Assembly (NCBI GenBank): GCA_001771135.1
Contig: MESW01000008.1
Span: 87,630 to 151,629, forward strand
Length of the DNA: 64,000 nt
From: a candidate division CPR3 bacterium GWF2_35_18
Lineage (GTDB): Bacteria > Patescibacteriota > CPR3 > GWF2-35-18
Direction of reading: 5' to 3'
In this document: positions 21,185-64,000 of the stretch, in pieces
Numbering within the stretch: position 1 is the stretch's first letter
Layout: the number at the start of each line of letters is the position of its first letter
Translations under genes and position numbers: made by a program
Notes under the pieces: model-generated
What the model was told of the DNA's origin: nothing
Seen by the model: the letters and a program-made list of their open reading frames with translations, nothing else
Databases searched by the model: none

Positions 21185-22375
21185 TTACATTCGTGAGAAT
21201 CTCGCGTGAGCTTCTTTAGCAAATTGACTCATGATTTTATAGTTTGCGTTATCATGAATTGAGGAGAGACCAAATGGAATTAAGGTTCTTCCTGTTCCTG
21301 GTTTGAGTAGACCAAACCAGATTTCGGGTGGAGAAATTATTTCCATTAATTTCCCTTGTTGTAATATTGTAGCGCATATCTGAGGTTTGATCACTGTAGG
21401 AATTGCTCCTACAGTCGATAACATCTTTTGTAAGCGAATGTTTTGAGGTTTATTTTTGAGGATAAACCGGATAAAACGAACGTTTTTGAAAAGGCGTTCA
21501 GAGATTTCCTCCAATGTTTGTAGATTAAGATTTTCTTGTGGGAAAACCTCAGCAAACTGGTTTCCATAGGTTTTGATTACGGTTTCATTTTGATTATGAC
21601 CGTTATTAATTGTTCTTGAGCTTATTTCTGGATAACTTTGGGTATTACTTAACCAGATGCCAGAAGCTAGAGTGGCGAGAAGATCGTTTTCGGAATCAAG
21701 ATAAAGAGGTTCAGAATACCACTTTAGAGCTTCAGAATTCCAGAAACGATATGAGATTTGAAAGAATTCTGTGAGAGGAACTCTTTTTGATACTTGCCAC
21801 GCAGTAGCGATGAGGGGTTCAAAACCAAAAGCTGTCATCATCAGATGGTTCATTGCGATAGACAGCATTTGCGGTCCTCCGGGGATAGTATAGCCATTGT
21901 TTACAACCGTGATTCCTGTACGAACTTCAGCCGAAAGTCCGATCGTGGTTTGCACTAGATTCGGATGTTCAAAGAGCTCCCTTATGCTAATGAGTATGGT
22001 TATAGAACCAGGAAAGTCCATAAATTGAGGATTTTTGGCGCAACGAACAACATCCCAGAATAGCTTATTTCTAGTAAGCTGAAAACTGGAAGTAGCAATT
22101 GGGGTATTGTCTGTTTCATCGTAGGAGATCCAGGTTAAGAGTTTCATTTCTCGCATTTCGGCTGCGATTTCTTCTGGTGTTTGTCCGGCCAGAATACCAT
22201 GTCCGTGATGTCCATAAACAGATTCAACTATTTGTTTATGATGAGAGGCAAAAAGTTTCAACTCCTGATTTTGAGTTAAGAGCTTGAGAGAGGAAACGGT
22301 ATGGAAATGCATTCCAGATGCGTTTGCTCTTTGAGTTAATCTTTCAATTTGAGTGGTTAAGATTCCAGTACCCAT
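21185..22375 (-). CDS. Hypothetical protein (396 aa) under T-box control; visibly higher G+C than its neighbours
   Basis: Uninterrupted ORF. AAGGAG RBS 8 nt upstream of the ATG. No family recognised by eye. Preceded by a canonical T-box leader. Confidence 0.6.
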   Translation of the reverse strand: MGTGILTTQIERLTQRANASGMHFHTVSSLKLLTQNQELKLFASHHKQIVESVYGHHGHGILAGQTPEEIAAEMREMKLLTWISYDETDNTPIATSSFQLTRNKLFWDVVRCAKNPQFMDFPGSITILISIRELFEHPNLVQTTIGLSAEVRTGITVVNNGYTIPGGPQMLSIAMNHLMMTAFGFEPLIATAWQVSKRVPLTEFFQISYRFWNSEALKWYSEPLYLDSENDLLATLASGIWLSNTQSYPEISSRTINNGHNQNETVIKTYGNQFAEVFPQENLNLQTLEEISERLFKNVRFIRFILKNKPQNIRLQKMLSTVGAIPTVIKPQICATILQQGKLMEIISPPEIWFGLLKPGTGRTLIPFGLSSIHDNANYKIMSQFAKEAHARFSRM

Positions 22376-22454: not shown

Positions 22455-22870
22455 AAAAAGCTCGTCCTTAAATAGAAAATTTTCTATTTAAGGACGAGCT
22501 TTTAATGAACTCGTGGTACCACCTTTAATTTCAGGTACAAAAAACACTCCAATTATGGAGTGTCCTGCATTTAATCATTTTATACCTGCTTGTTGATTCA
22601 AGTGCTTGACTTTGCAGTGACACTTTAGCCTTTGATAACGGAGGCATTCCGTCCCGCATTTAGTGCGAGAAGCTCCAGAGGGTATTTCGATTTTTTTACG
22701 TTCTGCAGGTTTTCAGGATTCCCTTGCTTTCTAAAAGTTACCGTAAAATTCTACTATTTCTCTTTCATCGCTTTTATACCGAATTGACTTAAATTGAACA
22801 TCAAAATAACGTTAATTCGGAGATATCCAACTACAATCTTATTATTTAATGAAGTTGAATATATAAAATT
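22455..22870 (-). promoter_or_regulatory. T-box riboswitch leader (tRNA-sensing antiterminator) upstream of the 396-aa unknown protein and tyrS
   Basis: Minus strand AAAUUAAAGGUGGUACCACGAG (complement of 22510-22531) against T-box consensus AAUUAGGGUGGNACCGCG. The antiterminator is AAGG[UGGUACC]ACGAG paired with CUCGU-CCUU, a 7-nt bulge. The terminator GCUCGUCCUUAAAUAG/CUAUUUAAGGACGAGC (22460-22499) is followed by U6. The Stem I start GCGAUGAAAGAGAAAUAGUAG carries a K-turn-like GA motif and an AGUA S-turn. Confidence 0.8.
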
Positions 22871-53251: not shown

Positions 53252-53278
53252 GGTAAAAAATGTTGGTGAAGTTTGAAA

Positions 53279-54010
53279 TTATTTTATGAATTCCTGTAAT
53301 TTTGTTCCCGAAGTAGTTGTTTTCCTAGCTATTATTTCTGTTTTTTGATTATAATTAACACCAGAAGCACCAGAAGAAATACTTTGTAAATTAACATTCA
53401 GGGTTGGAAATTCAGGAATGTTTTGGATGTATTGATTAACATCTTGTTTAGTAGCTTGCAATTCATTTAACAATATTCTATATCCTTCAATAAACGAATT
53501 CTGTAGTTGTTGGTTTTTTTTATTAAGTGATTCGTTTTTTATTCTTTGATAAGTTTTTTGGAAATCAAGGTAAAAGCTTTTAATATCAATATTAAGTTCG
53601 TCATTTTGTGTTTTTGTAAGATTTCCTTTATTTCTTTTAGTTAACTGTATACCAAACTTTACTAAAAAAAAGTGAGCCGTTCCATTTCGAATGGTGTATC
53701 TAAATATCTTTTGTAAGCGCTTATCATTGTATTGAGAATTATCTTTTACAAAATAGTTATCCCAGAAATATCCGAACGCGTGTTCATCTTTTTTTCCCTT
53801 TGATAATACAATACCTAATAATTCCATTCCACATAAGATTGTATGTACTGAAGGATAACTAAGTCCACCTATTGGCATGTCTAGTACTTTATAGATCATA
53901 GTATTCAGGTCACCAATTAGATAATCGTCTAAAAGTCGAAAGAAGGATTTGATGATATCTTGATTCATATTGTCGAAGGTTAAACTAATAGATTGATCTA
54001 AAGCCATCAA
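53279..54010 (-). CDS. Hypothetical protein (243 aa) flanking the R-M/defence cluster
   Basis: Clean ORF. No family recognised. Confidence 0.45.
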   Translation of the reverse strand: MMALDQSISLTFDNMNQDIIKSFFRLLDDYLIGDLNTMIYKVLDMPIGGLSYPSVHTILCGMELLGIVLSKGKKDEHAFGYFWDNYFVKDNSQYNDKRLQKIFRYTIRNGTAHFFLVKFGIQLTKRNKGNLTKTQNDELNIDIKSFYLDFQKTYQRIKNESLNKKNQQLQNSFIEGYRILLNELQATKQDVNQYIQNIPEFPTLNVNLQSISSGASGVNYNQKTEIIARKTTTSGTKLQEFIK

Positions 54011-54245
54011 TATCCCTGGCGGGGAGGGAGCCCAACAAATTGTTCACTAACATTCACAATTTCCGAACCCTTGATCCGACGTTGTCGGATGGATTCTCAT
54101 CCGTATTCTATACTTCGACAAACTCAGATACTCTCGTACTGAGCTTGTCGAAGTACGGAGAACCGTTGACGAAGTTCGAACCTATTTTATGAAAAATTTC
54201 AATATAACTCTTGCCTCATCAACTATTTAAAATAGTGTAAGTTAT

Positions 54246-55199
54246 TTACTTCGTAAGAGTCCAGAGATCTGTGAGTAATAATTTTTGAAAATCTCTAACT
54301 TGCTCTGCAAGTTTAAGATTATTTGTCATCTCAGGACGAGGGTCGATATAATAAACACCATCAAGTTTATTTAAAGCAACCGTATATCCAAGGAAATGGT
54401 TGGTCTTGAAAGTCGAATTGATTCCAAAAATACTTTTTCCTTTTACGGCTCTCTGAACATCATGCAAAAAAATAGCAATAACTTTTATGTCTCTTCCTAG
54501 TAACTTTGATAATAGAAATTTATCTAAAAAAATCTTGTCTATCCTATCTTTACTTGTAGTTTTTACAGAACCAACTATTTCTGATGGGTGTATGAATTTT
54601 GTTTCAGATGTCAAAATTGCTTTATTTTTTGAAAAGACAAGATCCAACTCATAAGACATAGTGTAACCTGATTGATTAGGTATAGGGAGATTAACTGTGC
54701 GTGGTTCACATTCCATTCCCAATTCTTTGATTATCAACTTAATTAAAACTTCAAATAACATTCCAATTCTCTTTCTTGACTGATTAGAATTATCAAAAGA
54801 ATCTCCAATGCATCCAATAGTTTGTTGAATCGTATAAATTACACTATCTATTTCTCTAGACTTAATGTAATCATCGTATTTTTCATTACTTGTTATTTTT
54901 TCTCGTTGTTTCTGCAAATCAGACAGAAATGAAATAAATCTTTCGAATTTACTTTTCATCTCCTCCGGAAATTCAATAAAAAGATTGCTATTTAATGGAC
55001 GAGTTATCTTATATCCATCGCTCTTACTATATTGGTAAAAAATATAATTATTTTGAGAGGGAGATACTATTCTGGTTGGATTTGAATTTTGAAGATAACT
55101 TAAAAATGCCTTAGCCATTTTAAGATAGTCTCCGAGTTGAACAAAAGCGGATTTGTCTTGTACACTTGCTTGTAAATCGTGTAAATTTATTGTTTTCAT
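54246..55199 (-). CDS. Putative type II restriction endonuclease (PD-(D/E)xK-like)
   Basis: Start overlaps the methyltransferase stop (ATGA). Candidate catalytic YELDLVF...SETK. No other family signal. Confidence 0.5.
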   Translation of the reverse strand: MKTINLHDLQASVQDKSAFVQLGDYLKMAKAFLSYLQNSNPTRIVSPSQNNYIFYQYSKSDGYKITRPLNSNLFIEFPEEMKSKFERFISFLSDLQKQREKITSNEKYDDYIKSREIDSVIYTIQQTIGCIGDSFDNSNQSRKRIGMLFEVLIKLIIKELGMECEPRTVNLPIPNQSGYTMSYELDLVFSKNKAILTSETKFIHPSEIVGSVKTTSKDRIDKIFLDKFLLSKLLGRDIKVIAIFLHDVQRAVKGKSIFGINSTFKTNHFLGYTVALNKLDGVYYIDPRPEMTNNLKLAEQVRDFQKLLLTDLWTLTK

Positions 55200-56149
55200 C
55201 TTATTGATTTTCTACGATTAGTATTTTCATGATCAAATTTTACCCAACGATCAATAGACCACTCCTTTACCATTTCTACTCGATTTGCAGCCATTTTACA
55301 ATAGCTTCTTGAAAGATCGCATCCCTTCCATCTTCTCTTCAATTGCTCTGCTGTCGTAATTGTTGTCCCAGATCCCAAAAATGGGTCGAGAACCAAATCA
55401 CCTTCATGAGATGAGGCTAAAATGATCTTTCTTAATAACTCTTCTGGCTTTTGGGTTGGGTGAGATGTTCTTTCTTCAGCACCATTACTTATCGTTGGGA
55501 TTTCCAAAACATCACGTGGTTTTGCCCCTAAAGGATTTGGACTCCATAATTTCCCTCCGTTTTTCTCCTTTCCATATTGGCTCGTTACCGCCTGTGGATG
55601 AACGGGATATTTTAAAGTGTGATCACCATAAGGTATACGGACAAAGTCGACATTGAAAATAAAATCCTTACTCTTTCTCAAATGTAAGATGCTCTCATGT
55701 GATCTTCCCCAATCATTTCCTAAGTTGGCTTTATTCTTATAATGCCATATTATCCACCGACAACCTTTAAAAAACTTCATGGCAGGATGTTTTAAATCAG
55801 CTAAAATTTCGGAAAATCCACAAATGTAAAGAGATCCATTCTTCTTTAATATTCGAGACGATTCCTCAATCCACCTCAGAGACCATTCAATATACTTTTC
55901 TTGAGATTCAAAATTATCCCACTCTGCCTTCTTAATATTATAAGGGGGATCAGCGAATATAAGGTCAACTGACTCAGAATCTAGATCCTTAAGCCAGGTT
56001 TCTGATTTACCTAACCAGATTTCACCATGAGGATGTGTGTAGAATAAAATTGGTTTGCTTTGATTCGATAAATCATTATCAATTCTCTGGAATCTTCCTT
56101 TCCTTAATTCATCTCCGAACAAAGTTAGTGATTTTATATTTTTTTTCAT
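55196..56149 (-). CDS. DNA methyltransferase, beta-class (N6-adenine or N4-cytosine)
   Basis: Motif IV IFADPPYNI precedes motif I DLVLDPFLGSGTT, the beta-class order. Confidence 0.85.
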   Translation of the reverse strand: MKKNIKSLTLFGDELRKGRFQRIDNDLSNQSKPILFYTHPHGEIWLGKSETWLKDLDSESVDLIFADPPYNIKKAEWDNFESQEKYIEWSLRWIEESSRILKKNGSLYICGFSEILADLKHPAMKFFKGCRWIIWHYKNKANLGNDWGRSHESILHLRKSKDFIFNVDFVRIPYGDHTLKYPVHPQAVTSQYGKEKNGGKLWSPNPLGAKPRDVLEIPTISNGAEERTSHPTQKPEELLRKIILASSHEGDLVLDPFLGSGTTITTAEQLKRRWKGCDLSRSYCKMAANRVEMVKEWSIDRWVKFDHENTNRRKSIR

Positions 56150-56161
56150 ACTGTTATATTA

Positions 56162-59100
56162 TTACAAACCCCTTCTTTCTTCCTGAATCTTTTCATGTTC
56201 AATTTGTTTGTCAAGAGAATCTATCATTTCATCCAACCATCGCTTTACATTATCATTATCTTCATTTTTTTTAAAAGCTACTAACTGTTCCTTCTTTTGT
56301 TGATAGTGTAGGCTTGCAGGACCAGACCAGCCTTCGGTATAAAAGTTTGCACCCATTTCTTTCCGAACATCGTTCCTACCTCCATATCGTGCTAAAACCT
56401 CTCTTGCCCAACATATTTTTCCTTCCTCTCTGAAAAGGAGCTTCGGAACGAAATAGGCGACATACCAAGCTCTCTTTTTAACATTTGCATCTACCCACTT
56501 CCATACTTTTTTTGGTGGGAAAAACGTTAATGCACCTGACATTCCCGCTGGCGAATGTTCACTTCCTCTCAGCCATTCTTTTATATGAAATGCTCTTGAA
56601 TCAATTGGTGGACCAAGATATTTAGCAGCGATATCCCATACCTCCGAGGGGTGATTTCGTGCAATTCCATCGATTACCTCTTGAGTCTGCGAATGATATT
56701 CCCCTAAGATACTATCATCTTCGCCAAAATGTTCCAGCATTACTTCCGCTAAGGGCAAGCTCTTCTTTGGATAAAGCTCGATAAACTTATTTCCAATCTC
56801 TTTCCAGTGAAAGTCGTCCATTTGGTTTCGTCTACCTTCTGACGGTTTTTTAAACAATGAAGGATGTGTGAGAAGCTTTAAAGTTAGGGTATCTGGTAAT
56901 TTGTGCTGAGACTCTTTTCTTAGATAAAAGAACTGATATAAATCAAGAGCAATCGAAACAGCATAATCCTCTGGACATTCGAGCAAAAATTCTATCCACT
57001 TCTTAAATATGTCCTCAGACAGATCTCGAATAACACTTCCGAGACCAAATACACGAAAATGTCCAGGCGTGATTACTTTCTTTTTGGCTAATTCCAACAC
57101 TCTTAAAGCTGCCCTGTATGACATACCAGATCGCCAAGTAAGGTCGGATACCCAGCTAGCTAGTTTTTCGTCTTTTGTTAAATCGTCTAGCAACGACTCC
57201 CATTTCTCCTTATCTTTTTCAAACAATACTCGCAGATATCCACCGATAAAGTAATCGCTAGAGTTGGGCTGTCTACTTACCTTACGCTGTGCATCTAATA
57301 GCATTGGTAATAAGGAAAAATCTTTATCCAGTTGACCCAGTTCATTACCAAATCGATACCCGCTCTTTGCTTCATTTGTTACTAACCAACTAAGTTCTGG
57401 TTTAAGCAGCTTAGGATCATCGACTACCTGTTGTGCAAGTTTTTTTATTGGAATTTCTGCCTTATCTACCCTGTTCCCGTCTTCGTCGAAACTATCTTCC
57501 AGGAGATCCATTCCAACATATCTCCTCATGAGAGAACTAAAATCGCTACCTTCCAGATCATCTCTTAATTTCTCCCATTTTTGTTTCATCTCAGCTGGCA
57601 TATCTTTTCCGTCATAGTGGAGAATAGCAATCACTCTTTCTAGAATTTTTTCCTTGTTCCCATAAGGATTTTTTGATAATTCAGTGATGTTTGCAATTAT
57701 CATGTCTGTTAGCTTCGGAATCTTACCTAAACCTCTTGAGTTATCAAGAAGAACATCAATTGCCTGATCCTGCTCATCTTCTGGTAGGACTTCCAGTTTG
57801 CCATATAAAAGTTCCCAAACCTTCTGATAGGCATCCCACAATTCGTCATATGTTTTTGCTCTCCACAGTTGAGCTTCTCTTCGCACTCCCTGATACTCCG
57901 CACCTATCATACGGGTAAAATGTTGGGATTCTAGTGCCTTATCACACGCCCGAATAGCAAGTTTCCGTCCTTCTTTTGAATCAGAATTGAGTGCCTCCTG
58001 AAGGACAGGTAGCCTTTCTTCTGGTGGTGCTTCAGTTGATGAAAGACCTACAGAAAATAGGTCTGCGAAAGTTCCACTAGCGTTATTGGCATAAGTTTCG
58101 TTTTCAGCCTCACCAAGAGCAAGAAGCAATCTTGCAGCATCAGCAAATAACTCTCTCCATACAACTATCTTTTCTAAAGCCCAAACAACATTTCTACGAG
58201 CTTCCCTAAACTCTAACAGTTCTTTTTTTCCCCACTTACCAATTGTTTCTTGTAAAGTTGCCAATGCCGACTCAGGATCAGCTTCGGTCAATTTTAAAAA
58301 AAAATCTCCGCCGAGCTTGGTTTTTATAAGTGTCCCATCAGAAAACAAACCATCTTTACCTAAAATTGCTTTAGCAAAATCTTTTCCTTTTTCTGAGGTT
58401 GCGATGTAAGGTAAATGGTCAAAAAATCTTTCGAGAAGATCAGCTCTAAATTCTTGTGGGATACTTTCAATAAATTCCTCGAACTTCTTCTTCGTAAAAC
58501 CGTGAGATTCCCACCATTCTTTAAGCAAGTATATTCTCAGCATGAAGGGGGTGACATAAATGTAATGCTGTCCCTGGATAATTCCTCTTTTTCTTTGTTC
58601 AGTCACTGCGTCTTGAAAGTCTGCAAATTCTACGCCCATCGTTTGTGCGACCCACTCGGATTCCTTTGATAATTTCCCCTCATAGCCAACTTTGCTGAAG
58701 AGGGATAGTCCCTGCAATACCTTCTTTGTTTTTCTAAAATGATCAGTTGTAAGATCTCGTCCACCAATCAAGCGGTTCATTAAAGCCTCATCGCTAACAT
58801 CCAAAAAATCTTTTTGGTCATCGGTTTTACTGGCTAAATAACTTTCAGCTAGTAAAACGCCTATTCGTGGATAGCCGTCTGCAAATTGACTTAGTCTATC
58901 AATAACATCATTTGGCAAGGCTGATGCTTCGGCTTTTAGGATTGTTTTAATGGAATCTTGACTTAATTTAGTTACTTTAAGTGATAAGGAAGGAGATGGG
59001 ATATTTCCTATCTCATAAGACAAAGTGATCAAAGCTAGTCGATTTCCTCTGGAAGAGAATGAGCGGACAAATTCGTCGTGCTGTTGTAAATCGCATTCGT

Positions 59101-59950
59101 CTATAACCACAATGGCAGACAGGTTTTGGTCATTTTGCAAAGTTGTGAACAAGGATGACAAACGGAAAGCGTCCGCCTTGACATAAATAACCCTTTGTTT
59201 TAGGTCGTCGGGAGCTAAAGCTTCATAAACAAACCTAGTTTTACCAATTCCTGAAAGCCCAGTAATTCTGAAAACAACACATTGCCCGTTACAATTTCTC
59301 AGTTTATCCGATATCTCTTCGGCTAATTTCTTTCTCTCGTCATCAAACACAAACGCCTTTGGCAACTGGATTTCTCTGTTTTCTTCCCATGAGGAATACG
59401 GCAAACATTGGCTAAGATCGTTTTTGAACCAAGCAACTAAAGAAGGAAAGCGTTCAATAAAACCAATCAACTGAGTCGCCGTGTAAAGGCGGACTTTAGG
59501 ATTGGGGTAACCCAATCGAACAAGTTCGTCTTTAATGGCTTGCTCTCTTGGGGCAGTAGCTCTTGGACTTGTTATGTCGGCAAATAGAACGAGCGTATAA
59601 GTTCCGTCAGCATCAAGAATTTTTTTTATTTCTGGCTTCAGCGGTTGATTTAAATCGTTTCCTATATGAAGTTCTTTTTTACAGGCAGCTGGAATAAGGT
59701 CGGAGGATTTTATTTGGTATCCACTTGTTCCATTGGGAATCACTTCATCCAAAGTCGGACCTGCATCATTTACATAAGCATCAACTCCACCATCTCCAAC
59801 ATTAATACACTGAGGAACATTGATGATATTTTGCCCAACTCCCACTCTTCCAGCCTCTGCCCACAAGAGTCTTCTAAAGGAGTCAACGGCACGATCTTGA
59901 CCAAGATTGGTTAAATCACTTACCTGCAAGGTAAACGGTGTAGTTGTCAT
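56162..59950 (-). CDS. Large STAND-type NTPase with N-terminal nuclease-like domain and C-terminal helical repeats (Avs-like antiviral candidate)
   Basis: 1262 aa. N-terminal GDGGVDAYV...GYQIKSS is PD-(D/E)xK/Mrr-like. Walker A ITGLSGIGKTRFVY, Walker B AIVVIDECD. About 900-aa helical C-terminus. Confidence 0.65.
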   Translation of the reverse strand: MTTTPFTLQVSDLTNLGQDRAVDSFRRLLWAEAGRVGVGQNIINVPQCINVGDGGVDAYVNDAGPTLDEVIPNGTSGYQIKSSDLIPAACKKELHIGNDLNQPLKPEIKKILDADGTYTLVLFADITSPRATAPREQAIKDELVRLGYPNPKVRLYTATQLIGFIERFPSLVAWFKNDLSQCLPYSSWEENREIQLPKAFVFDDERKKLAEEISDKLRNCNGQCVVFRITGLSGIGKTRFVYEALAPDDLKQRVIYVKADAFRLSSLFTTLQNDQNLSAIVVIDECDLQQHDEFVRSFSSRGNRLALITLSYEIGNIPSPSLSLKVTKLSQDSIKTILKAEASALPNDVIDRLSQFADGYPRIGVLLAESYLASKTDDQKDFLDVSDEALMNRLIGGRDLTTDHFRKTKKVLQGLSLFSKVGYEGKLSKESEWVAQTMGVEFADFQDAVTEQRKRGIIQGQHYIYVTPFMLRIYLLKEWWESHGFTKKKFEEFIESIPQEFRADLLERFFDHLPYIATSEKGKDFAKAILGKDGLFSDGTLIKTKLGGDFFLKLTEADPESALATLQETIGKWGKKELLEFREARRNVVWALEKIVVWRELFADAARLLLALGEAENETYANNASGTFADLFSVGLSSTEAPPEERLPVLQEALNSDSKEGRKLAIRACDKALESQHFTRMIGAEYQGVRREAQLWRAKTYDELWDAYQKVWELLYGKLEVLPEDEQDQAIDVLLDNSRGLGKIPKLTDMIIANITELSKNPYGNKEKILERVIAILHYDGKDMPAEMKQKWEKLRDDLEGSDFSSLMRRYVGMDLLEDSFDEDGNRVDKAEIPIKKLAQQVVDDPKLLKPELSWLVTNEAKSGYRFGNELGQLDKDFSLLPMLLDAQRKVSRQPNSSDYFIGGYLRVLFEKDKEKWESLLDDLTKDEKLASWVSDLTWRSGMSYRAALRVLELAKKKVITPGHFRVFGLGSVIRDLSEDIFKKWIEFLLECPEDYAVSIALDLYQFFYLRKESQHKLPDTLTLKLLTHPSLFKKPSEGRRNQMDDFHWKEIGNKFIELYPKKSLPLAEVMLEHFGEDDSILGEYHSQTQEVIDGIARNHPSEVWDIAAKYLGPPIDSRAFHIKEWLRGSEHSPAGMSGALTFFPPKKVWKWVDANVKKRAWYVAYFVPKLLFREEGKICWAREVLARYGGRNDVRKEMGANFYTEGWSGPASLHYQQKKEQLVAFKKNEDNDNVKRWLDEMIDSLDKQIEHEKIQEERRGL

Positions 59951-60147
59951 TCTTCTTTTTCTTTGCTTTCTAATATTGTTTCAATATCTTTTGGATCGTA
60001 ACGTCTATCACCACGCTTGCTTACAATGATCGCTTTTAATCTGCCACTTTTATCCCATCGTCTTAGTGTTTCCACATGAACATTTAATATATCTGCTACT
60101 TGACGGATATTTAATAATTTTGGTAGGGACGTATTTTTCTTCTGCAT
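59947..60147 (-). CDS. Small HTH DNA-binding protein (excisionase/AlpA/MerR-like)
   Basis: LLNIRQVADILNVHVETLRRWDKSGRLKAI. 4-nt overlap with the STAND gene. Confidence 0.6.
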   Translation of the reverse strand: MQKKNTSLPKLLNIRQVADILNVHVETLRRWDKSGRLKAIIVSKRGDRRYDPKDIETILESKEKEE

Positions 60148-60392
60148 AACTCAACTTAATTATACATTATTTTTGTAAAAGATAAATTATTTTTATAGTA
60201 ACTTCGTTTGTGATTAAAAGCAGATTGTAATATAATCTATCTATAAAATTCAGCGGCGAAACAATGGTTTTTACAACCAGTCTCAAACCTAAAAGTGGGG
60301 CAATCCCATTGGGTTTGAGGCTTCGCCGCTGAAAAACACCAGGGGTTGTCCCGCTTTTCGTTTGGGCACCCCAACTAATAAATTAAAGGAGG

Positions 60393-60908
60393 TTGCTCAT
60401 GGAAGATAATCAAAATCAAAACACTCAGCCAATAATTGAAAAGAAATCGTTGATAAATAAAAAGAACGTAACTTTCCTCCTTATAATTATTGGTATTATT
60501 AGTCTTGTAGGCTTGTCTAAGCTATTTTCAGCAGCAAGTAATACACTTGACGATGCTAACGTAAGGAGACAACAGGAAGAGATACAAAAAGAAGCAGAGA
60601 AAGATGAATTTAATAGAAAAAGAGACCTACTACGTGCAAACCTAAAAGAAGTACTCTTACAGCAGGATAGTATATTTACGCAATTTCAAATGGAAACTAT
60701 AAGTGATTATGTTTCCCTGGAGTTAACCGTTTCTGATAGTTGGTATTATACTGAGAAGTATTTACAAGATAGAATTTTAGATGATGCTTTCCAAACGTAT
60801 AATCTACTTGCAGTCAAACATGGACTTAGAACTGAAGGCGATCTTGCGTGGCCTATAAACATAGTGGACGAATACGGTGTTGAATTAGCAAAAAAGGGTC
60901 GGCTCTAA
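60393..60908 (+). CDS. Hypothetical membrane-anchored protein
   Basis: AAAGGAGG RBS. One TM helix. Coiled-coil segment. Confidence 0.45.
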   Translation: MLMEDNQNQNTQPIIEKKSLINKKNVTFLLIIIGIISLVGLSKLFSAASNTLDDANVRRQQEEIQKEAEKDEFNRKRDLLRANLKEVLLQQDSIFTQFQMETISDYVSLELTVSDSWYYTEKYLQDRILDDAFQTYNLLAVKHGLRTEGDLAWPINIVDEYGVELAKKGRL

Positions 60909-60956: not shown

Positions 60957-61463
60957 CTACTCATTTTGGGACAGTAATTCTATAGCTTTATCTAAACACT
61001 TAGCAATTTCATCTTTATGTGGTGATTGTCTGATTTCGTTTGCAACTTCAGCACTAGAGAGATAACCAACTTTCGGTAAGAATATACCTTCATTCAATAT
61101 GCTGGGGTAAAGCTCTTTCTCGGCTTTGAACAGGTTTACGAAGGCAAGAATTAAGCGATAATCGTCAATACCGTTAAAATCTGTTTCAGATAATTTCGAT
61201 AATAATTTGTCAGTAATGTTTTTTATTATTTTAGTCTGTCTATTCCTAACTTCATAAATTGATAAATCTTGACTATCCAACACACTACTTTCAATTTCTT
61301 TAAGCCTTTTTTTTCTTTCTTCGAACCACATTTCTTTAGAAGCCTTGTCCTTCACCGTTCCCAAAGGAATATCATATTTTTCTGATACCATGGAGACGGT
61401 TATTGTTTCCGAAGAAAAGTAATATTTTTTTAGCGTTAGCCAATCAATAGTTGTTTTTGCCAT
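60957..61463 (-). CDS. Hypothetical protein (phage-like region)
   Basis: Clean 168-aa ORF. Confidence 0.4.
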   Translation of the reverse strand: MAKTTIDWLTLKKYYFSSETITVSMVSEKYDIPLGTVKDKASKEMWFEERKKRLKEIESSVLDSQDLSIYEVRNRQTKIIKNITDKLLSKLSETDFNGIDDYRLILAFVNLFKAEKELYPSILNEGIFLPKVGYLSSAEVANEIRQSPHKDEIAKCLDKAIELLSQNE

Positions 61464-61503
61464 TTTGGTTCAGTAAAAGCATGTCATTATGCTATTATAT
61501 GCT

Positions 61504-61532
61504 TGACAAGCATTACATACTAGTATATACTA
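61504..61532 (+). promoter_or_regulatory. Sigma70 promoter for 61556 gene
   Basis: TTGACA-17nt-TATACT. Confidence 0.4.
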
Positions 61533-61555
61533 ACCTAAATTTGAGGTCAAATAAA

Positions 61556-61888
61556 ATGAGCGATTTAAAATCCAAAGACGAGCTTAAAAGCTATTTCAGA
61601 AAATATAGTATCAAAAAAATCCAACTATTGAATGAGATTTCCAAAGGACTTTCTACCACATTTGGCTTAAAGGAAACTATAAAAATGGACGTTAAACCCT
61701 TGGGTGGACAAATCTCGTCTTTAGTAAGAACTCAAATTGATGGTGAGCCACTCATACAGCCAGTAGCAAGGGATGAAAAGTATGGTATTATCTGGAAATC
61801 TAATGACAGAATTGCTTCCAAAGAAACTATAAATCAGGCTACTAGCGAGATATTAAAAGAGGTTAACGAATGGCAAAAGAGCAAATAA
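61556..61888 (+). CDS. Hypothetical protein
   Basis: ATG at 61556 after the promoter. The track ORF from 61451 likely starts too early. Confidence 0.4.
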   Translation: MSDLKSKDELKSYFRKYSIKKIQLLNEISKGLSTTFGLKETIKMDVKPLGGQISSLVRTQIDGEPLIQPVARDEKYGIIWKSNDRIASKETINQATSEILKEVNEWQKSK

Positions 61889-62067
61889 AAACTCTCGGAG
61901 AACTATTTGAAGAATTGAAAACGGTGTCAGGAACATTTTCTCAATACATATGGCAACAACCTATTAGTCTCATCTTTGATGAAAATAACGGTAAGTTGTT
62001 GGTGTACGAAGGTGGAAAAGAATTAAGAAATAGACTTTTTATTCGAAAACTATCAAAAAATAAATAA
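61870..62067 (+). CDS. Hypothetical small protein
   Basis: Overlapping start. 65 aa. Confidence 0.3.
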   Translation: MAKEQIKTLGELFEELKTVSGTFSQYIWQQPISLIFDENNGKLLVYEGGKELRNRLFIRKLSKNK

Positions 62068-62402
62068 TTATTCTGAAGTATGATGAAGAGCCAAGAATTG
62101 AAATAAGGCTCTTTCTCTAAAGTGAATTGGAAAAGGCACGATTATAATATCGTGCTTTTTTTTATTTGCTTTGTCGTAGAGGGTCCGACCGTTGCGGATG
62201 TTTGGGCGACGTAAAACAAAATCAAACAAAGATTAACGGCGACCGACCGAAGCGACCGACGGTGATTATTAAAAAGCCAGATGGAAACTTCAGAGATAAT
62301 TTTCTATCTCTAAGAATACATCTAGATATAGATATCACCAGAGGGAGCGAGGGAGGGAAGGGATGAAAGTATTAGGGTATTCAGGAAAAGGCGGAGCCTT
62401 TT

Positions 62403-62558
62403 ATGAGTCGACAAAGTGACAACAAAAACACAAAACAGGTCCGAATTGATGCCGAACTGCATAAATTACTAAAGATTGAAGCAGCTGAGACTAGAAGCAC
62501 CATCAAAAGGCTAATAGAGTCTATTATTTTGGAATCGTATGACCCTACTACTAACAAA
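62403..62558 (+). CDS. Ribbon-helix-helix (CopG/Arc-like) DNA-binding protein, 51 aa (not in ORF track)
   Basis: KQVRIDAELHKLLKIEAAETRSTIKRLIESII is a beta-strand-helix-helix pattern. Its stop overlaps the next ATG (TAATG). Confidence 0.45.
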
Positions 62559-62758
62559 TGGAAAAAATAATGGGATTATCAAAACAAGCTGTAAGTGACT
62601 TTAAAAGTGCTTACTTTAAAAGGTACGGAAAAGTTATATCGGATACAGAAGCTCAGGAAAAAGGTCTGGAATTACTAACTTTTTTCAAAATTATTTACAA
62701 GCCAATCCGAACTAGTTCGAATAACGATTGGAAACAAATTGGAGGTAAAAATGAATAA
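62558..62758 (+). CDS. Hypothetical small protein
   Basis: 66-aa ORF coupled to its neighbours. Confidence 0.35.
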   Translation: MEKIMGLSKQAVSDFKSAYFKRYGKVISDTEAQEKGLELLTFFKIIYKPIRTSSNNDWKQIGGKNE

Positions 62759-63014
62759 ATATGAAAAATTAGTCAAAAACTTTGTTCAAAAAGCTAATAG
62801 TGGGATAAGGGTAAGTGCAACTAAAGCCATAAGAATGTACTGTTTAGATTGCATGGGATACCAATATAAAGAGGTTGATAGATGTCCCAGTCAATTAAGA
62901 TGCCCATTATTCCACTTTAGAAAAGGTAAAAATACTACAGGGATATCTAATACTAAAAAGAAGGTATCGGAAATTAGTCTTCGAAATTTATCGGAAAGAA
63001 AATCCAAAGAATGA
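62739..63014 (+). CDS. Hypothetical small zinc-ribbon protein
   Basis: CLDC...CPSQLRCP. Confidence 0.35.
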   Translation: MEVKMNKYEKLVKNFVQKANSGIRVSATKAIRMYCLDCMGYQYKEVDRCPSQLRCPLFHFRKGKNTTGISNTKKKVSEISLRNLSERKSKE

Positions 63015-63195
63015 AACGTAGTGTCAGTTGGAAGCATTATAAAAGAACTCGGTAATAAAACTGTATATTATTGACTTAGAAAACCTACTGTGTGATGATT
63101 AAGTCGTGCTCAACTTAATGAATCGTTTTTTTAGATGGCCGTCTTGGACAACTTGAAGCGATTCATGTTGAGCACAACCAGGGCGGCCTTTTAAG

Positions 63196-64000
63196 TATGA
63201 ATGACCAAACAAATCTACAACAATTAAAGTTTTTCATGTACTGTCGTAAAAGCACGGATAGCGAAGACCGACAAGTTGCTTCTTTGCCTGCTCAGATAAA
63301 AGAGCTCACAGAAATCAAGGATCGTGAGAAGCTAAATATTGTTGATGTATATCAAGAATCTCATTCTGCCTTCCATCCAGGTAGACCAATGTTTAACGAA
63401 ATGCTTGAGAGGATTGAGAATGGTGAAGCTGATAGTGTTTTAGCATGGGCTACCAATCGCATTGCAAGAAACTCAAAAGATTCAGGGGAATTCATTTATT
63501 TAATAGACCAAAAAAAAATAAAGGTTGTCAAAACGAAGGATCGGACTTTCTACAATAATTCTGATGATAAATTCACACTTAATATCGATTTTACAGTAGC
63601 TAAAAAATCCTCAGACGACTTGAGTGCTGTAGTTCAAAGAGGAAATAGAGAAAAGTTTTTCGAAAGACGCGAATGGGGTGGAGTGGCCAAGATTGGATAT
63701 TTGAACTATACAGATCCGATATCAAAAAAGAAGAAGGTAATTTCTGACTCTAGTAGATTCCAGCTTATAAGAGATGCTTTACACCTCATGATTTACAAAG
63801 GTTATACCCCTATGGAGGCTTTGGATGTTCTGAATAATGAATGGCAGTTTACCACCAGAAAGACACTTAAACTCGGCGGTAAACCAATGAGCCGTACCAG
63901 TTGGTATGACATTATTAAAGACTCATTTTATTTTGGTTTAATGGAAAGAAAAGTTGATGGGAAAAAGGAAACTATTATGGGAATTCATGAACCAATGATA
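63196..64000 (+). CDS. Large serine recombinase (partial, continues past window end)
   Basis: N-terminal catalytic motif FMYCRKSTDSEDRQVASLPAQ (the YxRxST serine-recombinase nucleophile) followed by a recombinase-domain region. No stop codon before 64000. Confidence 0.8.

Follow-up and report, generated by a model that had tools for sequence, protein, structure and literature searches.

A predicted Avs8-family STAND nuclease with a helix-turn-helix leader gene next to a type II restriction-modification cassette in a CPR3 bacterium

The antiviral STAND (Avs) families Avs1-4, or AVAST, were reportedly described by Gao et al. 2022, and the reference protein of the PD-lambda-4 family, now Avs8, is said to be Avs8A of Escherichia coli ECOR07 (WP_000963924.1), from Vassallo et al. 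2022. Here we compare with these systems a locus in a 64,000-nucleotide stretch of DNA (hereafter the window; contig MESW01000008.1 of assembly GCA_001771135.1, forward-strand positions 87,630 to 151,629) from the candidate division CPR3 bacterium GWF2_35_18, a groundwater member of the candidate phyla radiation (CPR). The minus strand of the window carries, at 54246-60147, four consecutive open reading frames (ORFs) for a restriction endonuclease (REase)-like protein, a DNA methyltransferase (MTase), a large protein of 1262 aa and a small helix-turn-helix (HTH) protein (GenBank entries KKP70010-70013). We consider it likely that these genes form a small defence islet, next to an integrated mobile element and made of two separable modules, namely an Avs8-type sensor with its HTH gene and a type II restriction-modification (R-M) pair.

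PD-lambda-4 was renamed Avs8 in a study in which Avs8A, where an Mrr nuclease is joined to a STAND P-loop NTPase, bound HK97-fold major capsid proteins (Kd 14-127 nM) and degraded double-stranded DNA in an ATP- and Mg-dependent manner; mutation of the nuclease site abolished defence, and the second gene of the system, Avs8B, was dispensable in E. coli (bioRxiv 10.1101/2025.07.02.662641). Avs8 was independently listed as a capsid-sensing STAND family by Lee et al. (bioRxiv 10.64898/2026.01.04.697583), in whose STAND seed table, in truncated form, the window protein is not among the entries. Avs1-4 (SeAvs3, PDB 8dgc; EcAvs4, 8dgf) differ in their sensors, Avs1-3 sensing the terminase and Avs4 the portal, and no PADLOC AVAST model was matched by the window protein.

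The large gene (56162-59950, minus strand; KKP70012.1, labelled hypothetical) encodes what its sequence identifies as a full-length but distant member of the Avs8/PD-lambda-4_A family. The sole PADLOC defence model that it matched was PD-Lambda-4_A (PDLC03991), with an E-value of 1.7e-52 and with residues 6-1260 aligned on positions 4-1278 of the 1283 of the model. Reference proteins were reached through an NTPase-domain sequence from the published seed table, which led to an Enterobacter Avs8A (1777 bits on the PD-Lambda-4_A model) and from there to a canonical E. coli A+B locus (2518 bits for Avs8A and 653 bits for Avs8B on the PADLOC models). Matches on Enterobacter plasmids had first looked partial with the window protein as query, and the E. 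coli NTPase fragment as query showed them to be true Avs8A. At the equivalent position, the window protein shared 30% identity (E 2e-15) with the NTPase domain of E. coli Avs8A (residues 217-398), and a BLASTP comparison with Enterobacter Avs8A gave 24% identity (E 5e-27), colinear over aa 6-679. Using a 46-sequence family profile of its homologs as the query, hhalign aligned the protein with Enterobacter Avs8A over 1021 columns (probability 99.9%, E 3e-37) and with canonical E. coli Avs8A over 962 columns (probability 100%, E 1e-39); the nuclease and NTPase domains and some 650 sensor residues were covered. These PADLOC, BLASTP and hhalign results bear out the Avs-like nuclease-STAND-repeat architecture proposed in a preliminary description of the same DNA, and narrow it to Avs8/PD-lambda-4_A. 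That description had also suggested a PADLOC scan of the locus, which yielded PD-Lambda-4_A together with MTase_II and REase_II for the two R-M genes. Other resources were silent on the large protein: the NCBIfam scan and the PDB sequence search gave no match, and Pfam gave just nSTAND_NTPase5, below threshold (18.5 bits against a cut-off of 34).

Consistently with this assignment, the window protein resembles E. coli Avs8A (1283 aa) in length, in its colinear order of nuclease, STAND NTPase and putative alpha-repeat sensor, and in the defence-island and mobile-element contexts of the genes. The N-terminal effector (aa 1-180; 59411-59950, minus strand) models as an Mrr-type PD-(D/E)xK nuclease with its predicted catalytic residues intact (E32, D57 and Q79-x-K81). 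In alignments of 46-106 homologs, the invariant positions comprised E32, D53-G-G-x-D57 and Q79-x-K81, with D57 lying in GGVDAYV and Q79 and K81 in YQIKS of the window protein, as well as G234/G236/K237/T238 of Walker A (GLSGIGKT), D284 of Walker B (VVIDECD) and G359-x-P361 (G359-Y-P361 in the window protein). The motifs GVDAYV/YQIKS, GLSGIGKT and VVIDECD, already quoted in the preliminary description, are therefore present, with their key residues invariant in the 46-sequence alignment. Two of these motifs set the protein apart from its E. coli counterpart, since GxP is intact in the window protein (GYPR against GNAR in E. coli) and Walker B reads IDEC where E. coli has LDNC.

A structure model covering aa 190-1262, with a predicted local distance difference test score (pLDDT) of 89 and a predicted template modelling score (pTM) of 0.71, showed a P-loop core of five strands, then a helical domain and a winged helix and, after these, an alpha-solenoid of about 790 aa. 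Walker A and B, GxP and a winged helix after the P-loop core, the features expected of a STAND NTPase, are all found in the window protein, and the NTPase module (aa ~205-480; 58511-59338, minus strand) comprises the P-loop core, the helical GxP domain and the winged helix. Foldseek searches with this module retrieved Avs3, the STAND-TPR protein 6mfv, Apaf-1, SAMD9, Cdc6/ORC and plant NLRs. The rest of the protein is a predicted all-alpha solenoid sensor (aa ~481-1262; 56165-58510, minus strand), as judged from the model, Foldseek and the profile alignment. About 900 aa of helical repeats had been proposed for this end of the protein, with TPR as the comparison to make; the C-terminal ~900 aa were indeed nearly all helical in the confident model (pLDDT about 90 in the sensor part), a Pfam scan of the sequence detected no TPR repeats, and Foldseek found a resemblance of the solenoid to HEAT/ARM repeats as strong as that to TPR.

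Many STAND clades have no role in defence, and no Pfam domain passed its threshold in the large protein, so that a signalling ATPase or a transcription regulator might be considered instead. We regard such a non-defence function as extremely unlikely, given the invariant nuclease effector domain, the lack of a DNA-binding output domain, the homology, along the full length, to a protein whose role in defence is experimentally validated, and the defence-island and mobile contexts of the relatives; the searches assigned the protein to no non-defence STAND family, and no catalytic nuclease residue was missing.

The sensor is where the resemblance to Avs8A becomes less certain. The hhalign alignments extended up to aa ~1019-1086 of 1262, the BLASTP alignment stopped at aa 679 and only the PADLOC hidden Markov model (HMM) envelope reached the end, which leaves the C-terminus of the sensor not confidently aligned to the E. 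coli protein, from which the capsid trigger is known. It is accordingly possible, and the most serious of the competing explanations, although clearly not the one we favour, that the solenoid of this clade, within the same family, has been retargeted to some phage protein that is not the major capsid protein. Such retargeting would fit the low identity (22%) with E. coli Avs8A and the last ~180-240 aa, which hhalign left unaligned, as well as the finding that similarly built Avs families sense 13 different phage proteins (Lee et al., bioRxiv 10.64898/2026.01.04.697583). Against it stand the ~650 sensor residues colinear with Avs8A, the PADLOC HMM alignment that reaches the C-terminus, and the occurrence of the clade in both bacteria and archaea, which favours a universal target such as the HK97 fold.

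The distribution of the family was broad. Close homologs of the window protein numbered 180, all of about 1260 aa, and the family as a whole comprised 3994 representative clusters at E ≤ 1e-3 (1497 of them at E ≤ 1e-30). Its bacterial holders included Poribacteria, Dehalococcoidia, Omnitrophota, Brocadia, Nitrospirae, Saccharibacteria and Paceibacterota, the relatives in the last two coming from metagenome-assembled genomes (MAGs), and its archaeal holders Helarchaeota, Bathyarchaeia, Aenigmatarchaeota, Nitrosopumilus and haloarchaeal plasmids; this spread is in keeping with a universal target, as the HK97 capsid fold would be. The view that such systems are essentially uncharacterised in CPR lineages is correct as regards experiments, but the family itself is characterised in E. 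coli and has relatives in the Saccharibacteria and Paceibacterota MAGs. The neighbours of the relatives included defence genes (GmrSD, TIR, helicase-PLD, and a DEAD helicase with a 1514-aa MTase), MazF, PIN and HEPN toxins, integrases, and tyrosine or serine recombinases, surroundings typical of defence islands and mobile elements.

Besides its CPR host, the window locus differs from the described Avs8 in lacking Avs8B. No neighbour of the sensors matched PD-Lambda-4_B in the PADLOC scans, and tblastn with the verified Avs8B (653 bits) as query gave no hit when run against the window and 95 loci. A search over 79 loci for a conserved up- or downstream partner retrieved none beyond same-genus or duplicate contigs. 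Two 147-aa downstream genes proved unrelated, and a 299-aa gene downstream of the sensor in the 87% relative, considered as Avs8B, was ruled out by the lack of a PD-Lambda-4_B match and by tblastn with Avs8B. In E. coli, blastn with the Enterobacter gene found Avs8A homologs in 174 of 5426 complete genomes. Strain FEX669 (NZ_CP065152) has the canonical A+B pair beside an integrase and a DEAD helicase/DUF2290 pair, while strain STEC434 (NZ_CP129383) has an Avs8A homolog without Avs8B, followed by an RNA-directed DNA polymerase gene; B-less Avs8A thus occurs in E. coli too.

A second difference from Avs8 is the leader gene found in the subclade of the window. This 66-aa HTH gene (59947-60147, minus strand) encodes a protein of the MerR superfamily/HTH_17 type and overlaps the large gene by 4 nt (ATGA), its stop TGA lying within the ATG of the large gene when the sequence is read. 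That this ATG, at 59950, is the true start of the large gene is supported by sequence conservation, because residues 4-8 (T-x-F-T-L) are kept across homologs. The protein matched HTH_17 (1.1e-10) and MerR_1 (3.4e-10) in Pfam, mad1 (1e-10) in PADLOC and phrog_66, an "excisionase and transcriptional regulator" family (6.8e-10), in PHROG; against the NCBIfam excisionase model (Xis, TIGR01764) it scored 21.5 bits, under the cut-off of 28.8. Orthologs with 71-72% identity lie 2 nt upstream of sensor orthologs of 87-88% identity in two other, unrelated contexts, both with recombinase-free flanks and with downstream genes entirely different from those of the window. The HTH accompanies the sensor only in this subclade of ≥85% identity, in three differing contexts in all, and was missing beside sensor relatives at ≤70% identity in the loci inspected; an HTH gene upstream of the Avs8A homolog of E. 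coli STEC434, considered as an ortholog, is unrelated to the window HTH. Only ~30 nt of upstream DNA before the HTH start, holding TGTATAAT at 60159-60166, are kept with the 87% relative, so the HTH would stand at the start of the module and the mobile unit of this subclade would be promoter, HTH and sensor. The putative promoter region was placed at 60148-60214 (minus strand) from this upstream alignment and a consensus scan match at 60214-60186.

These data bear on the possibility that the HTH serves the neighbouring serine-recombinase element as an excisionase, or recombination directionality factor, its overlap with the sensor gene being accidental. The excisionase-type HTH_17 fold, the phrog_66 match and a serine recombinase ~3 kb away would suit this role; the sub-cut-off NCBIfam score, the orthologs placed directly before sensor orthologs in two loci without a flanking recombinase, and the short stretch of conserved upstream DNA, which makes the HTH the start of the module, render it very improbable. 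Because the excisionase score is below cut-off and the gene travels with the sensor rather than with a recombinase, the HTH is probably a regulator rather than an excisionase: of the Xis-like HTH of the preliminary description, the excisionase-like MerR/HTH_17 fold is retained and the excisionase function is not. By analogy, the most economical reading would be a transcriptional, probably autoregulatory, role. A comparable small HTH gene stands first in the MADS defence operon, where mad1 is a non-essential leader gene of the "widespread regulator" type (bioRxiv 10.1101/2023.03.30.534895), and the mad1 match of the window protein reflects generic HTH_17-fold similarity. Membership of MADS was rejected, as mad1 alone was matched: in the PADLOC scan mad2-8 were absent from the window genes, including the mandatory mad6-8, and the large protein, the MTase and the REase matched no mad model.

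Downstream of the sensor gene, after a gap of 12 nt, lie the MTase gene (55196-56149, minus strand, 317 aa) and, overlapping it by 4 nt, the REase-like gene (54246-55199, minus strand, 317 aa). The ORF listing and the sequence read confirmed the four genes, their coordinates and their overlaps as previously noted. The MTase matched PF01555 (E 1e-53, 183 bits against a cut-off of 26.7) and PADLOC MTase_II (2.9e-65), and its closest PDB relatives were M.MboIIA (1.2e-37) and M.RsrI. With DPPY upstream of DPFLGSGTT, the motif order of the beta class, as had been noticed earlier, it is predicted to be a beta-class N6/N4 DNA methyltransferase, probably acting on N6-adenine.

The REase was matched over its full length by PADLOC REase_II (E 2.3e-64), and Pfam and NCBIfam have no model for it. 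A PDB search with the single sequence gave no match, and a family profile was needed to reach entry 6ekr (E 1.9e-5), which is Kpn2I (bioRxiv 10.1101/694703). The invariant columns of the family are D186 and S211-x-K213, the candidate catalytic residues, followed by an invariant TTSKDR block, and KTTSKDRI aligns to KITTRERI of Kpn2I; the relationship is very remote, and the window protein has Lys in place of the first Arg of the R-(D/E)-R block. We conclude from these comparisons that the protein is a predicted type II restriction endonuclease, remotely homologous to Kpn2I. The family to which it belongs has over 2100 members of ~318 aa, all labelled "hypothetical", with identities of 65-70% between proteins from distant phyla; its sequences suggest a widespread type II REase family, only remotely related to Kpn2I, that has gone unrecognised. 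The R-M pair of the preliminary description is in this way upheld by MTase_II, REase_II and the Kpn2I profile match, and also by the finding of the same cassette on a Lactiplantibacillus plasmid (NZ_CP035132), where an MTase gene followed by an overlapping REase gene encodes proteins 56% and 40% identical to the window pair. On this plasmid the cassette occurs without the sensor, which marks the R-M pair as an independent, mobile type II cassette.

Whether the four genes form a single system, in which the MTase and REase would work with the STAND nuclease, either by methylation that shields self DNA or in a MADS-like manner, was weighed on this evidence. The genes share a strand, the sensor and the MTase are separated by 12 nt and the other pairs overlap by 4 nt, consensus scans between sensor and MTase found no terminator-like or minus-strand promoter-like site, and the HTH matches the mad1 model; read-through co-transcription of the R-M pair from the sensor gene is also plausible on this arrangement. 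Nevertheless, the 87-88% sensor orthologs retain the HTH and have wholly different downstream genes, the M-R pair stands alone on the Lactiplantibacillus plasmid, no further MADS gene is present (mad1 being a generic accessory regulator), and activated Avs8A degrades DNA without a partner (bioRxiv 10.1101/2025.07.02.662641). The separability of the modules largely refutes a single system, to which we assign a very low probability. What had been described as one defence cluster is therefore a set of adjacent genes but not one system, because HTH plus sensor recurs in three unrelated contexts and the R-M cassette occurs alone on a Bacillota plasmid.

The interpretation that we prefer, two separable modules side by side, builds on homology, domain folds, invariant residues, module boundaries and genomic contexts that were observed or computed; for the trigger, the oligomerisation and the DNase activity we infer the following course. 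By analogy with E. coli Avs8A, the sensor-nuclease would be autoinhibited at rest. Upon infection, its C-terminal alpha-solenoid would wrap a phage protein in monomeric form, for which the major capsid protein of HK97 fold is the likeliest candidate, whereupon the STAND NTPase would bind or hydrolyse ATP and the protein would oligomerise, probably into a tetramer. Oligomerisation would unite the N-terminal Mrr-type D-QxK nucleases, and phage and host double-stranded DNA would be degraded, in the manner of an abortive infection. The HTH most likely binds the promoter of its own module, which would hold the expression of a toxic sensor gene low, and the 4-nt overlap may couple the synthesis of the two proteins. 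Independently, the R-M cassette would provide a first barrier, its beta-class MTase protecting host DNA, probably by N6-methyladenine marks, and its Kpn2I-like PD-(D/E)xK endonuclease cutting unmodified incoming DNA.

Several points weigh against this interpretation. Overall identity to characterised Avs8A is 22-24% (22% to the E. coli protein) and no Pfam domain is found above threshold in the large protein; the last ~180-240 aa of the sensor are not aligned to Avs8A by hhalign, so that the trigger could differ; Avs8B is absent from the window; the case for a regulatory HTH is made up solely of its position, its fold and the mad1 analogy; and the tight spacing (12 nt, with no site between) also fits a functional coupling of sensor and R-M pair. 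A more speculative proposal, rather unlikely in our judgement, is that the B-less clade of ~1260 aa, and specifically its CPR/groundwater subclade, is a two-component variant of Avs8 in which the coupled HTH would be a functional partner (such as a subunit that inhibits the sensor or tethers it to DNA, or a switch that responds to infection) and not a plain repressor, and that, separately or additionally, the diverged C-terminus of the sensor would read a phage protein other than the HK97 capsid.

The surroundings of the four genes were also inspected. G+C content was 0.39-0.40 over 56-60 kb, the region of the sensor gene, against ~0.33-0.36 around it, and GC skew was strongly negative there, which is consistent with a recent horizontal acquisition of the sensor gene. 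To the right, a serine recombinase gene (63122-64000, plus strand, running off the edge of the window; PF00239, E 1.2e-18) lies ~3 kb from the HTH, and small ORFs fill 60957-63014 upstream of it, encoding a weak terminase-small-like HTH protein (60957-61463), an Arc/Omega-like ribbon-helix-helix repressor (62403-62570) and a Cys-rich 91-aa protein (62739-63014). These genes probably belong to an integrated mobile element adjoining the defence genes; att-like direct repeats were sought at the limits of the island, and the only pairs to emerge were short and probably due to chance.

Between this element and the HTH gene, a GC-rich hairpin at 60249-60345 (within 60225-60395) was very stable on either strand, with minimum free energies of -59.6 kcal/mol (z -5.5) and -63 kcal/mol (z -6.1). 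This hairpin sits between a plus-strand promoter match (60208-60236, 10/12) and the AAGGAGG/ATG (60399) of a divergent gene for a 171-aa membrane protein, is present in a single copy in the window and had a best Rfam match of E 0.049, below gathering. The hairpin is not kept in the 87% relative and was assigned to the divergent neighbour rather than to the HTH and sensor module; it may be a cis-regulatory leader of the membrane-protein gene. On the other side, just 3' of the REase stop, an inverted repeat with 31-nt arms (54097-54169, minus strand) may mark where the transcription unit ends. A 243-aa ORF (53279-54010), for which Pfam, NCBIfam, PADLOC and PHROG gave no match, is flanked by an imperfect direct repeat of 29 nt (53262-53290 and 54165-54193; 83%). 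On the minus strand each copy reads "...F I K stop", and the upstream one may represent what is left of the 3' end of a displaced paralog, or else the scar of an insertion. Elsewhere in the window, a T-box leader (22487-22777, minus strand), which scored 100 bits with Rfam RF00230 and so passed gathering, precedes a 396-aa ORF (21185-22375).

The finding is largely expected and does not overturn current understanding; its value lies mainly in annotation and in the extension of Avs8-type sensing to CPR bacteria and archaea. With the assignment to Avs8, a 3.8-kb gene labelled "hypothetical" in a CPR genome of the ~1-Mb class receives a function that is concrete and can be tested, and because Avs8B is absent, defence finders that demand both PD-lambda-4 genes would miss the system. 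The HTH and sensor unit moves as a module, and the REase family beside it lacks a public family model. Through a large, horizontally spread clade, capsid-type pattern-recognition immunity would thus extend to CPR bacteria and archaea.

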